DNA from: a virus | Lineage: Duplodnaviria > Caudoviricetes | IMG/VR virus record: IMGVR_UViG_3300011774_000001 | Coordinates: 96,001 to 160,000 of that record | Direction: 5' to 3' (one strand) | DNA: 64,000 nt | Part shown: piece by piece, positions 2,756 through 52,765 of the stretch | Numbering within the stretch: the first letter of the stretch is position 1 | How the letters are laid out: each line of letters begins with the position of its first letter | The notes under the pieces: model-generated | Databases searched by the model: none | Told to the model about the DNA's origin: nothing | The model's input: the letters and a program-made list of their open reading frames with translations, nothing else | Translations under genes and position numbers: made by a program

Positions 2756-2793
2756 CATACGCCCCCTCCCCATCACGGGGAGGGGGCTATGCC
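2754..2793. terminator. bidirectional hairpin between convergent genes
   Basis: GACATA-c-GCCCCCTCCCC-atcac-GGGGAGGGGGC-TATGCC. Confidence 0.8.
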
Positions 2794-13082: not shown

Positions 13083-13123
13083 GACATACGCCCCCTGCCC
13101 TTTGCGGGGCAGGGGGTTTATGC
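13083..13123. terminator. bidirectional hairpin
   Basis: GACATA..CCCCCTGCCCT-TTGC-GGGGCAGGGGG..TATGC. Confidence 0.8.
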
Positions 13124-30515: not shown

Positions 30516-30764
30516 ATGCCTTCAATGAAGCTTAAGGACCACATGGCCCAGTTCATTGTGCTGAGCCCTACATTGGGTGAAGAGGTCGAGTTTATCTTGG
30601 GTGTCAATGCCCCGGACGACTTGGCCACCCAAGTGCAGGCATGGTGGGTCGATAACCCCAAGGCTACCGCCAAAGATGCAGCGCTGTGGATGCAGGGTAA
30701 GAACTGGGGCGTGTTGGCAGATTACGAGGCGATCTCTTTAGTTCGCCCAAGGAAGAAATCATGA
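30516..30764 (+). CDS. hypothetical protein (82 aa)
   Basis: ATG at 30516 just after the dcd stop; ATGA overlap with next gene. Confidence 0.7.
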   Translation: MPSMKLKDHMAQFIVLSPTLGEEVEFILGVNAPDDLATQVQAWWVDNPKATAKDAALWMQGKNWGVLADYEAISLVRPRKKS

Positions 30765-31267
30765 GAGCAGAAGATCCGTGGTTGGTGGCCCGCTACTCCC
30801 CAATGATGATCGATGACAATATCTACTTTGTCATTGCTGTTGGTTTACCGTCTGGGAATCTGCGTCGTAATAAATCGCCTCAGTTGGTGACCTACGTTGA
30901 TCCTCGCACTGGCGCTGAGTACACCCGTGAGAAAGAGGACTTCATGGTGCGGGCTGCTTACGCCACCTTGGATCAGGTTCAGAACATCCTGGACTATCTC
31001 AAGCCGTACAACTACAAGGCCGTGCAAGTCATGGCGCAACATCGGGATGCAATTCCTATCACGCTGGTAGTTCGTTCGTACCCCGATGCTCGTGGGCCTG
31101 TACTCAACTACACGGATCGTGCGCTGATCCACAATTACGGTGCAGCGCTTGATCCTCATGATCCTGCCAATTCTATTGTGGTGGCTGCCCGATTGTTGGA
31201 AGAACCCACGGCCACCAAATTTATGCGTCTGACCAATATCTTGGCCAAGACTATCTGGAGCGTTTAA
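30761..31267 (+). CDS. hypothetical protein, DUF1653-like N-terminus
   Basis: Y.V...VTY......YTRE..DF pattern. Confidence 0.65.
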   Translation: MRAEDPWLVARYSPMMIDDNIYFVIAVGLPSGNLRRNKSPQLVTYVDPRTGAEYTREKEDFMVRAAYATLDQVQNILDYLKPYNYKAVQVMAQHRDAIPITLVVRSYPDARGPVLNYTDRALIHNYGAALDPHDPANSIVVAARLLEEPTATKFMRLTNILAKTIWSV

Positions 31268-31268
31268 A

Positions 31269-31526
31269 ATGGTAATGCGTGTTTGGCCAGCTAAGGTCAA
31301 GATCGAAGTGACCCGCCTTCTGGATCAAGATGTTAAGGTTCCAGGCGATGCCGTTGTCCATCAGGAGCAACTCATTGTTCGTGTAGAAGGTCTGTGTGCA
31401 GACGCTGTGCTGCGCAAGATCAAAGACCACTACAAGGCCATCGACAAGAACTGCGAGGTCAAGTTCCTGAGCGGGGTTGACTGGTATCCTGCCGACATGA
31501 TTGGCAAAATTGAATTAAGTTTCTAA
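31269..31526 (+). CDS. hypothetical protein
   Basis: SD GGAG; operon continuity. Confidence 0.7.
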   Translation: MVMRVWPAKVKIEVTRLLDQDVKVPGDAVVHQEQLIVRVEGLCADAVLRKIKDHYKAIDKNCEVKFLSGVDWYPADMIGKIELSF

Positions 31527-32455
31527 GGGTTCTGCTAGATGTATTAGTAGAACCTATAAGGATCGCATGATGCGACGGATTCTTTTAGGGGGATCGGGGT
31601 TGGGACTTGCTTTGGCTTTGGCTACACTGGCACATGCCGTGGAGCCGGTTTGCGATGGAGTGGAGTGTCCGTCTTTCGAGACGGATGACACCGCTGACCT
31701 GCGCGTTGCCGCTAGCTCTCCCAGCTCTCGATTCCCCGCCTATTCGGCTGTACCTACGAGCAGAGAACTAGGTGCCGCCCCTCTGAACCGCACGAGTCGG
31801 GATCGTGTATGGACAGCTGGGGTCGCGCACAGTCCGATGAAGACCTTTTGAATCCAGGGGTGTAACGCCGGCATAGCCCACTATCAAATCCGGCACTTAA
31901 GGAAAACAAGGAGCATCACACGAACTACTTGATCCGCTGGGCACTTCTGTTGCTCGGGTCAGTAGTCGCAGTACCGACCATCCTGACGCGGAATGCTACC
32001 GTTCTCTTGCCATGGACCGTGGAGGTCCCGCAGGTTGAAACGCAGTCTTCGTTTGCACGGTTGGTATGGAAAAGTGTGTTGGCTGGGATCGGCAAACTGC
32101 CTACCCAAACCCACAGCACTTTCGCGACTGCCTGACAAACTCACAGGCCGCATTGCCAAAGTAGAGGTTTAAATGGACCTCATTAGGGATGGCTCTCAGC
32201 CTACCTGTATATCTGCACAGAATCCTGCTCGCGAGGACAAGGCTCCCTGAGTTCCCACGGACTCAGACCACGTACCTTACCCAGGCCTAGGCAGTGACCG
32301 CTCGACGATACCCCTATTCCAAGTAAGGCCAACACTCTCCCGATGGGAGTAAGTGAAGAGCTGCTTCCCTGATCTCTCTAGCACCAGCTGATGCGCTCAG
32401 CCGGTTTCACTGACGAGACTTGAGTGGCCTTGAGTTTAGAGGGTATTCGTTGGGT
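31527..32455 (+). ncRNA. large multi-domain structured ncRNA, unclassified (~930 nt)
   Basis: More than 20 helices identified by eye, including nested long-range pairings; UUCG loop; G-U pairs indicate the + strand; no convincing CDS. Confidence 0.7.
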
Positions 32456-32496
32456 ATTCATTTTATCTCTTATGCCCTTGCCCCGTTTAAACGCTT

Positions 32497-32524
32497 TTTC
32501 AAACCTAAAGTATCAACCTGAATG
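32497..32524 (+). promoter_or_regulatory. phage early promoter, copy 2
   Basis: TTTCAAACC-TAAAGTAT-CAACCTGAATG. Confidence 0.75.
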
Positions 32525-32578
32525 ATCGTCAGTAATGATTGATTGTTCTTGAATAACTACCGCACAAGGAATAGGTTA

Positions 32579-36598: not shown

Positions 36599-37048
36599 AT
36601 GTCCACCTATGAACGTTATCGCCCATCCCTGGCCCGACATATGCTGGAAGGTTATTTGGATTGGTACGCGACGCTACCCGATGCGGAGAAATGCTACCTC
36701 ATCGTAGACCCTGTGGTTTGGGATGACATGCCCGAGCCTCTCAAGAAGTTTATTGGGCCGGCCGGTTTGCTGTTGGACATCAGCCCACAAGCCGTTGTCA
36801 ACTTCGTGATTGGCGACGAGTACCTGAGTTTCAATGCTCGCTTCAGTGGGCAAGAAACTCAACTGGATATTCCGTGGCCAGTGATTCATTCGGTGTACAC
36901 AATCACCCGTGACCAACAACCCATCTCGCAACTCGGATTCGGTGGGTATACCCCTCATGAATTCCGCACCATCGAAACACCAAAACCCGAAGAACAACCA
37001 GTTGCGCAATCCGCTGACAAGAAACCAGCCCTGCGCGTTGTCAAATAA
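36599..37048 (+). CDS. sspB: ClpXP adaptor SspB homolog
   Basis: ISPQAVVNF...LSFNARFSG core; C-terminal ClpX-binding motif PALRVVK. Confidence 0.88.
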   Translation: MSTYERYRPSLARHMLEGYLDWYATLPDAEKCYLIVDPVVWDDMPEPLKKFIGPAGLLLDISPQAVVNFVIGDEYLSFNARFSGQETQLDIPWPVIHSVYTITRDQQPISQLGFGGYTPHEFRTIETPKPEEQPVAQSADKKPALRVVK

Positions 37049-52085: not shown

Positions 52086-52363
52086 GCGTCTCTGTCAATC
52101 AACTGCAGGCTGAAATCCGTGAAGTGGAGGGCGTCGATGTTGTCGTCCATTCGGCTAAGCCTGGTGAGATGTTTCCTTCCTACAAAGAGCAGTGGCACAA
52201 AGGTCTGAGCAACGAGCGCACCCTGTCGGCATTCAAGCGTCGACTGGAGCACTGTCTGCGCGGTCATAGCTACGGCATCAACAAATCCGATGGCAACAAA
52301 ACGCAAGGCGCTGGCAACATCTACATGGGCACCATTCGTGGTGTCGAAGTAGCGAAGGCATAA
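52082..52363 (+). CDS. small protein, paralog of 61119..61415
   Basis: V.QL..EI...EGV.VVVH shared. Confidence 0.7.
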   Translation: MSVSVNQLQAEIREVEGVDVVVHSAKPGEMFPSYKEQWHKGLSNERTLSAFKRRLEHCLRGHSYGINKSDGNKTQGAGNIYMGTIRGVEVAKA

Positions 52364-52400
52364 GTGCTGCCCCCTCCCTTCGGGGAGGGGGTTTATGCTC
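52357..52400 (+). terminator. hairpin flanked by GGCATA/TTTATGC
   Basis: GCCCCCTCCC-cTTCGg-GGGAGGGGGT. Confidence 0.8.
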
Positions 52401-52429
52401 CACCATTTTTTCTTTTTGTTTCAACCGAT

Positions 52430-52457
52430 ATTCAAACCTAAAGTATCCATTTGAATG
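52430..52457 (+). promoter_or_regulatory. phage early promoter, copy 5
   Basis: ATTCAAACC-TAAAGTAT-CCATTTGAATG. Confidence 0.75.
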
Positions 52458-52481
52458 TACCCTCATTAAACGGAGTTTACC

Positions 52482-52763
52482 ATGAAATTGTTTCAAGCCC
52501 TGTTGATCTCTGTGATGTTCTCTCAGAGTGCCTTGGCTATGTCGTCGGACAAACCCCACATCAGCGTAGACCGACTCATTGAGTTGGCTAAAGATCAGGG
52601 GCTGGCGGTTGCTCAGTGTCGTTATGGGCTGTGTCGCGATACAGAAGATGGCTACTATGTGAGCATCCCTGGTGCGGGCAAAGACGGCTACTATGCCTAC
52701 GACCCATTGACCACCACCCCATCTGAAGGCTTTGGCTCAGACCTGCCTGAGAACAAGGAATAA
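52482..52763 (+). CDS. small secreted protein
   Basis: Sec signal ending ALA; Cys pair. Confidence 0.7.
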   Translation: MKLFQALLISVMFSQSALAMSSDKPHISVDRLIELAKDQGLAVAQCRYGLCRDTEDGYYVSIPGAGKDGYYAYDPLTTTPSEGFGSDLPENKE

Positions 52764-52765
52764 TC

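Follow-up and report, generated by a model that had tools for sequence, protein, structure and literature searches.

What do the 930 nt at positions 31527-32455 of a phage sequence encode, a large non-coding RNA or a message? An earlier note had taken this stretch (hereafter the unit) for an ornate, multi-domain non-coding RNA of the + strand. The DNA analysed, a stretch of 64,000 nt which we call the window, is contained in a phage genome of 230,984 nt with 54% GC and no tRNAs. Virion families of the phiKZ type are encoded in this genome, and its terminase shares 39-43% identity with those of the Xanthomonas phages RTH11 and Xoo-sp14, Erwinia Agricanvirus and Pseudomonas Noxifer. Judged by its genes, the source virus is an uncultured phiKZ-like jumbo phage; the runs that match it best are plant, rhizosphere and soil samples. 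Upstream of the unit lie dcd and three small genes and downstream a phage promoter repeat (9 copies in the genome, all on the + strand), the neighbour genes being dcd, DHFR, thymidylate synthase and SspB. The gap had been singled out as the largest of the region, and 31301-32542 is indeed the longest stretch of the 231-kb genome that is free of ORFs of at least 100 aa. The accompanying claim that it holds no credible gene did not survive, since two conserved ORFs fill 31570-32135. The next-largest stretches of this kind are 52086-52765 in the window and 86775-87530, 163061-163762 and 171749-172363 in the genome.

Searches with flanking proteins and patterns yielded 12 syntenic loci, 49-99% identical, which represent about five independent lineages, all of uncultured phiKZ-like phages. 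Among 50,697 phage records, blastn with the region and tblastn with ORF2 and the downstream gene returned chance matches only. A pattern scan of GTDB genomes gave 0 matches, Xoo-sp14, Ea35-70 and DT01 matched neither the ORF2 profile nor the domain 3 model, and no second copy of the unit was found in its own genome. Short-pattern matches at L003-L005, L007, L008, L016, L019 and L020 were discarded as chance words. At a similar position, Xoo-sp14 has an annotated 463-nt gap (L031:8500-8970) in which an open frame longer than 140 codons was left unannotated.

The unit is conserved differently from its surroundings. In the L001/L009 comparisons, the linker, ORF2 and domain 3 are 73-85% identical compared with 60-71% for the flanking genes, the first 210 nt of ORF1 being the exception, and in distant pairs domains 3-4 are better conserved than the flanking genes. 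Relative to L013, identity is 87-97% from the 5' hairpin through domain 3 and 59-78% in the adjacent flanks, which suggests that the unit was exchanged as a block. The 168-aa and 85-aa genes (window 30761-31526 against L013:3211-3988) are just 59-70% identical, with a recombination boundary at about 31526. One lineage (L021-L023) has a free-standing GIY-YIG endonuclease gene directly 3' of the terminator (L021:4726-5295; L023:4747-5262), an insertion that marks the same boundary just past the 3' end; in L023, a NUMOD3 protein gene adjoins dcd.

Table 1. Features of the unit and its boundaries, in window coordinates.
Feature	Position	Strand	Basis
5' hairpin, immediately past the stop codon of the 85-aa gene	31527-31555	+	6-7/7 core pairs in 11/11 rows
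AUG-UAU-UAG mini-frame, loop and 3' arm of the 5' hairpin	31539-31547	+	invariant
SD (AAGGA) and AUG of ORF1, in a small hairpin	31557-31572	+	both in all homologs
ORF1, 93 aa (78-102 in homologs)	31570-31851	+	open in all homologs, gene-called in most
Domain 1: long helix that closes a 2-3-armed junction, inside ORF1	31588-31737	+	9 homologs folded separately
Covarying hairpin beneath the R-T...V-W motif of ORF1	31788-31812	+	8 pairs, 100% of cells paired
H-type pseudoknot with A-rich loop 3	31858-31894	+	S1 31858-61/31876-79, S2 31867-71/31890-94
SD AGGAG, 6-nt variable spacer and invariant ACG: probable ORF2 start	31909-31922	+	13/13 sequences
ORF2, 71 aa (64-72); coding region = domain 2	31920-32135	+	codon-position pattern
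Domain 3: non-coding multiloop	32143-32300	+	homolog alignments
SD/AUG hairpin inside domain 3	32164-32181	+	hairpin conserved, frame not
Domain 4: non-coding, long closing helix and two optional modules	32301-32454	+	covariation
TTATGCCC tail, phiKZ-type intrinsic terminator, probable 3' end	32470-32477	+	TTATGCC in 13/13
Promoter-like repeat of the next transcription unit (boundary, outside the RNA)	32485-32524	+	repeat family D2

The description of the unit as non-coding was contradicted by the pattern of codon changes, an outcome that the earlier note had named, for the 94-aa ORF, as a refutation. In the 94-aa ORF of the earlier note (ORF1), codons 1-12 show 7/3/16 changes at the three codon positions (p = 0.003), and the pattern is stronger in the ACG-started ORF2 (46/29/62, p = 0.002), whose hydrophobic half, codons 1-36, gives 27/6/30. 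In ORF2, 46% of the changed codons are synonymous, compared with 9-32% in the other frames, and its WKSVL motif is kept through a Ser codon switch from AGT to TCC. ORF2 has no usable AUG. Its AGGAG and ACG are invariant while the spacer columns vary, and in 7 homologs an in-frame stop is located three codons upstream of the ACG. In E. coli, ACG initiation is low but real, at 0.1-1% of AUG (10.1101/063800).

The predicted ORF2 product has one N-terminal TM segment (KD19 1.8-2.4) followed by an amphipathic basic WKSVL helix. Helices 2-29 and 45-57 were modelled with low confidence, which is true of the AlphaFold models of the ORF products in general. The C-terminus is always T-A or A-A, compared with 4/183 long ORFs of the genome, and our guess is that this end serves as a protease tag. 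The nearby SspB homolog (window 36599-37048; also present in L009, L013-L015 and L028) has the C-terminal tail RVVK, which is of the ClpX-binding type, and might act on Ala-ended peptides such as that of ORF2. A holin or spanin was rejected because there was no PHROG/Pfam match, no lipobox was seen and no endolysin is found among the neighbours.

ORF1 would encode a signal-peptide-like hydrophobic N-terminus, a variable disordered body and a conserved R-T-x4-V-W-x-x-G motif near the end, and its stop position is not conserved. Past codon 12 the coding signal is weak, the reverse frame that shares third positions scoring higher. No Pfam/PHROG family was found for ORF1, and its model is one helix followed by disorder (pLDDT 53); a Rossmann-fold reading of its N-terminus was dropped as it is absent from L011 and L021. 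For both proteins, no relatives were found outside the clade and the ESM Atlas gave no usable feature match, its structure matches being disregarded because they rested on a model of pLDDT 0.26. Fusion of ORF1 to ORF2 by frameshift or readthrough was rejected, since an in-frame stop precedes the ORF2 SD in 7 homologs and the ORF1 stop wanders; gene-60-type hopping was likewise rejected for want of a matched take-off codon.

Omega is 0.3-0.6 for ORF1 (0.9-1.4 in the two closest pairs). Omega of 0.14-0.64 exceeds the values of the flanking genes (mostly 0.02-0.24), and synonymous divergence in both ORFs is mostly at or below that of the flanking genes. This is as expected if the sequence serves protein and fold together, and the constraint is therefore double. 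On comparative grounds, the RNA holds two small genes with hydrophobic products, of which ORF2 appears to start at ACG; the 5' two-thirds of the 930 nt are predicted to be coding, the non-coding remainder being limited to some 320 nt at the 3' end and a 68-nt linker.

When compared with shuffles, the + strand folded better (z -3.2) than the - strand (z -1.9). With 97 control windows giving a mean z of -1.0 ± 1.15 and 3% below -3, the 230-nt windows at 31527, 31570 and 31910 reached z -5.2, -3.2 and -3.4, and those at 31750, 32140 and 32250 were unexceptional (+0.3, -1.1 and -0.5). Domains 3-4 therefore rest on covariation. Every motif quoted in the earlier note was found in place, and the homologs keep the core of the 5' hairpin, the helix 31588-31605/31719-31737, the pairings 31962/32131 and 31972/32066, the 32071/32122 arm and the closure of domain 3. 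The closure of domain 4 is also kept. The 7-bp 32325/32431 register is disfavoured, and covariation backs a 4-nt shift. By contrast, the proposed closure of domain 1 (31577/31855) retains just 1-3/6 pairs outside close relatives, and the UUCG loop is altered already in 94%-identical relatives. The list of features in that note lacked the pseudoknot, the SD/AUG hairpin of domain 3 and the terminator tail.

A 12-nt core of the 5' hairpin is invariant in 13/13 sequences. The mini-frame within this hairpin lies 8-9 nt past an AAGG, just after the stop of the upstream gene, and, if translated, may be a re-initiation or ribosome-holding signal. Domain 1 is unalignable by sequence across clades; the same architecture is nevertheless formed from different sequence in 9/9 homologs, its long helix beginning near codon 7 of ORF1 in each of them with the inner arms present. 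The hairpin beneath the R-T...V-W motif has 2 pairs changed on both sides (0/500 shuffles on cells) and one position with three pair types, and in domain 2, the folded coding region of ORF2, 5/60 pairs show both-side change with 90% paired. In domain 4, 10/25 pairs are changed on both sides, 96.8% of cells pair and 0/500 shuffles match, with slid controls at 31-41%; because there are only about five independent lineages, these covariation counts are not formal statistics, as they take the sequences as independent, with some of the structures taken from the alignments on which they were scored. Module A of this domain (32333-32355) has 6/9 pairs changed on both sides (1/500 shuffles). Modules A and B (~32383-32410) were lost independently in some relatives, L011 being without both. 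Domains 3-4 also contain invariant unpaired motifs. The third AUG (32173) opens a 21-26-codon frame conserved neither in sequence nor in phase, and this ORF3 was rejected as a peptide because three different phases run over the same conserved bases. By this comparison of homologs, the + strand fold over the 930 nt is kept by compensatory change and thus under selection.

As to the linker, the pseudoknot is paired in 107/107 cells over 12 sequences. Its S2 has two both-side changes, and S1 shows one-side changes only (pair 4 is U-G, U-A or C-G), so that S1 is the weaker part. The pseudoknot ends 12-14 nt upstream of the ORF2 SD, and the geometry of pseudoknot, SD and ACG is fixed across 50% divergence. 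Although fold and pseudoknot are conserved, no conserved helix over the ORF2 SD was found among the homolog folds. In 10/13 sequences, 8/8 pairs can form between the terminator tail and the S1 arm of the pseudoknot; no compensatory change was seen in this pairing, and each arm has other reasons to be conserved.

At the 3' end, the TTATGCCC that follows domain 4 agrees with the terminator motif given for phiKZ, a stem-loop and then TTAT (PMC10914365), both elements being present. Genome-wide, 77/351 TATGY words (22%) follow a strong hairpin, compared with 2-3% of control words. A GC-rich hairpin with TATGY is the general terminator form of this genome, as at window 2759-2788 and 13088-13119, and is often bidirectional where genes converge. 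The conserved terminator after domain 4 fixes the strand, and the RNA probably ends near 32475. As no promoter was recognised inside the unit, the 5' end would be that of the upstream operon or a processing site. On the minus strand, sequence analysis found no conserved promoter motif or partner (antitoxin) RNA.

Two rhizosphere metatranscriptomes from different studies contained contigs of such a phage. Those of X17 cover 31838-31990 and 32067-32414, with no other phage-like cover in 6 kb, and X19 gave a contig at 31824-32228 together with two short pieces in flanking genes. No RNA contig of either run falls on the first 250 nt of ORF1, where the DNA run of a similar strain aligns, as it does across the flanks. 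The concentration of contigs on 31824-32414 is a weak hint at a stable RNA of some 600 nt from the 3' part, as the runs were chosen by this query and neither strand nor ends nor level can be read from contigs; the absence of RNA contigs from ORF1 and the flanks does not prove that these are little expressed.

With respect to known classes, Rfam gave 0 matches in the window at the gathering score and at E ≤ 10, and ARAGORN found no tRNA or tmRNA in the window or the genome, both in line with the earlier note. Among six homolog loci, Rfam gave one chance match (E 3.4) outside the element. The absence of Rfam matches and the compensatory changes uphold the idea of a new, conserved, multi-domain + strand RNA of jumbo phages; no evidence was found for the suggested ribozyme or anti-defence decoy. 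Group I and II introns were rejected, as there was no Rfam match, the flanking genes are intact and in L021-L023 the GIY-YIG gene is located past the terminator, outside the unit. RNase P was rejected as well. A tmRNA did not fit either, for neither ARAGORN nor the alignments revealed a tRNA-like domain (G3-U70, T arm, CCA). The unit is a real, apparently undescribed, dual-coding structured RNA restricted to a narrow, uncultured clade.

Which known systems does it resemble? Type I toxin systems include hok/mok/sok and tisB/istR, where mok is an upstream frame of low sequence constraint and a 3' fold-back of hok mRNA acts as a block until the 3' end is trimmed. ORF2 would encode a small hydrophobic protein with a TM segment, as is typical of such toxins, ORF1 may be likened to mok, and the possible 3' fold-back to that of hok. 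The phage unit differs in that no antitoxin RNA was found, the genome is that of a lytic jumbo phage, the start is ACG, the length is 930 nt with a structured 3' region of 320 nt, and there is no sequence similarity. Staphylococcus RNAIII, a dual-function RNA, is long and multi-hairpin; a membrane-active peptide is encoded within it, and its 3' domain is structured and non-coding. The unit shares the long multi-hairpin form, the embedded hydrophobic peptide frame and the structured non-coding 3' domain; unlike RNAIII, it is phage-encoded, has two ORFs and has no known base-pairing targets. The membrane toxin TimP offers a further parallel, as its timP transcript was first annotated as the non-coding RNA RyfA and its translation requires a pseudoknot upstream of the RBS (PMC11228461). 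Shared with timP are the structured transcript first taken for an ncRNA, the small membrane peptide and the pseudoknot upstream of the RBS (PMC11228461). GOLLD, ROOL and OLE share size, multi-junction fold and optional peripheral domains with the unit, and the first two also its phage origin (10.1101/2024.12.08.627333). The unit matched none of their covariance models, however, and is set apart from them by the lack of any Rfam match at E ≤ 10, the lack of a tRNA island, two selected ORFs and a narrow clade; it has the covarying multi-domain fold of large ornate ncRNAs but not their freedom from protein-coding constraint. The sRNAs and terminators of phiKZ and 201phi2-1 belong to the same virus group and the same hairpin plus TTAT terminator type, and the RNAs described in the available text of those reports are shorter than 250 nt and non-coding (PMC10914365, PMC11512511, PMC8244752). 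By analogy, the closest counterparts in mode of working would be type I toxin mRNAs and dual-function RNAs; membership in neither is established, no antitoxin having been found.

The explanation to which we give about an even chance is that the unit is a locked mRNA of the type I toxin kind that meters a membrane peptide, the translation and function of which are putative. The unit would be the end of the dcd operon transcript, and the ORF2 membrane peptide would be kept very scarce by the fold together with the ACG start, perhaps helped by a C-terminus open to proteases. The pseudoknot would be the on-switch for initiation in a timP-like manner, and ORF1 would be largely an upstream regulatory frame like mok, because its body and stop position drift. 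Domains 3-4 would stabilise the 3' part, which would persist as an RNA of about 600 nt. They may also gate translation: in a hok-like manner, pairing of the terminator tail with the S1 arm would keep the pseudoknot from forming before trimming of the 3' end. The peptide would most likely act on the host inner membrane, in lysis timing, exclusion of competing phages or damping of host energy. The locked mRNA is favoured by the coding signal in ORF2 and the ORF1 N-terminus, by covariation in coding and non-coding parts, by the fixed pseudoknot-SD-ACG geometry and by the movement of the unit as a block. It is weakened by the search for an antitoxin, which found none, by the weak ORF1 signal beyond codon 12 and by a 3' fold-back without compensatory change; moreover, a 320-nt 3' region with invariant unpaired motifs far exceeds what is found in type I toxin mRNAs.

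This last feature leads to a serious although less probable alternative, in which the RNA is the main product. OLE RNA has a membrane protein partner, OapA. A stable ornate RNA of about 620 nt, from pseudoknot to terminator, would here be a scaffold or RNP core that encodes its own scarce membrane anchor or partner, like OLE and OapA in one molecule. The invariant unpaired motifs and optional peripheral modules of domains 3-4 would suit such a role, as would the conservation of these domains beyond that of flanking genes and the position of the metatranscriptome contigs, mainly on 31824-32414 and off the first 250 nt of ORF1 in two studies. But those contigs were found with this query and define no ends, strand or level, neither module of domain 4 is indispensable, no covariation pointed to kissing loops or multimers, and OLE, ROOL, GOLLD and every other Rfam family failed to match. 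The two readings are not mutually exclusive. A bolder combination, to our mind doubtful, would make the unit a large phage RNA of a new class, machine and message at once: a stable ornate RNA of 600-900 nt with its own job and a self-made membrane anchor from a pseudoknot-controlled ACG start. That job could be a scaffold or, given four SD/start hairpins in a row, a ribosome-binding decoy.

It is improbable that ORF1 is a membrane-targeting monitor like SecM or MifM, in which translocon pull and C-terminal arrest would set the pseudoknot and hence ORF2 translation. SecM, MifM and VemP share with ORF1 an upstream position, a hydrophobic N-terminus and a conserved C-terminal motif, and monitoring substrates of such layout are described in the available text of the source (PMC7897499). 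ORF1 moreover has a free linker, a suitable length of about 93 aa and a Trp codon some 45-55 nt upstream of the pseudoknot within its conserved motif. That motif, however, overlies the hairpin 31788-31812, whose own conservation explains it. The stop of ORF1 is variable, and in L011/L027 it falls five codons past the Trp, too short for SecM geometry; arginines occur within the hydrophobic stretch in the L001 clade, no known arrest motif is present, and the downstream gene is not part of the translocon.

Quite improbable, too, is the view of the earlier note that the RNA is purely non-coding and its ORFs are by-products. Structure does span the ORFs, omega exceeds that of flanking genes by a factor of 3-10, and a single frame of such length is open in 3-8% of shuffles. 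Yet both frames are open in all lineages with indels net in-frame, codons 1-36 of ORF2 show the second-position conservation typical of a TM segment, and the Ser codon switch and conserved SDs point the same way. The opposite extreme, two ordinary small accessory genes with an over-long terminator region and incidental structure, is very improbable: domains 3-4 fold no better than shuffles and coding windows in the genome average z -1, but both-side changes far exceed shuffled and slid controls, and domain 1 keeps its architecture with different sequence. A phage tmRNA-like tagger with pseudoknot, resume frame and Ala-ending degron is scarcely credible in spite of the AUG-less frame that follows the pseudoknot and ends in T-A or A-A and the phage SspB 4 kb away, since ARAGORN finds nothing, no tRNA-like domain or CCA end was seen, and the frame has its own SD and TM segment.

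If ORF2 is translated, it would provide a natural conserved ACG start in a phage; we know of no such start from other phages or bacteria, and a single literature search gave no example. It would also bring type-I-toxin-like RNA control of a membrane peptide to a lytic phiKZ-like phage, from a group whose RNAs are short and non-coding in the available descriptions. The peptide is a candidate for a membrane function such as lysis timing or exclusion, and in its 320-nt non-coding half the unit offers an RNA motif, not described before, that is suited to probing and cryo-EM. For genome scans there is a caution in that the largest "intergenic" gap of this genome conceals a gene overlooked by callers. 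Elsewhere in the window, the SDs of accessory genes (4639, 6130, 7150, 8206, 9334 and 10337) lie in a repeated hairpin whose loop is readable as AAGGA and resembles a CsrA/RsmA site.
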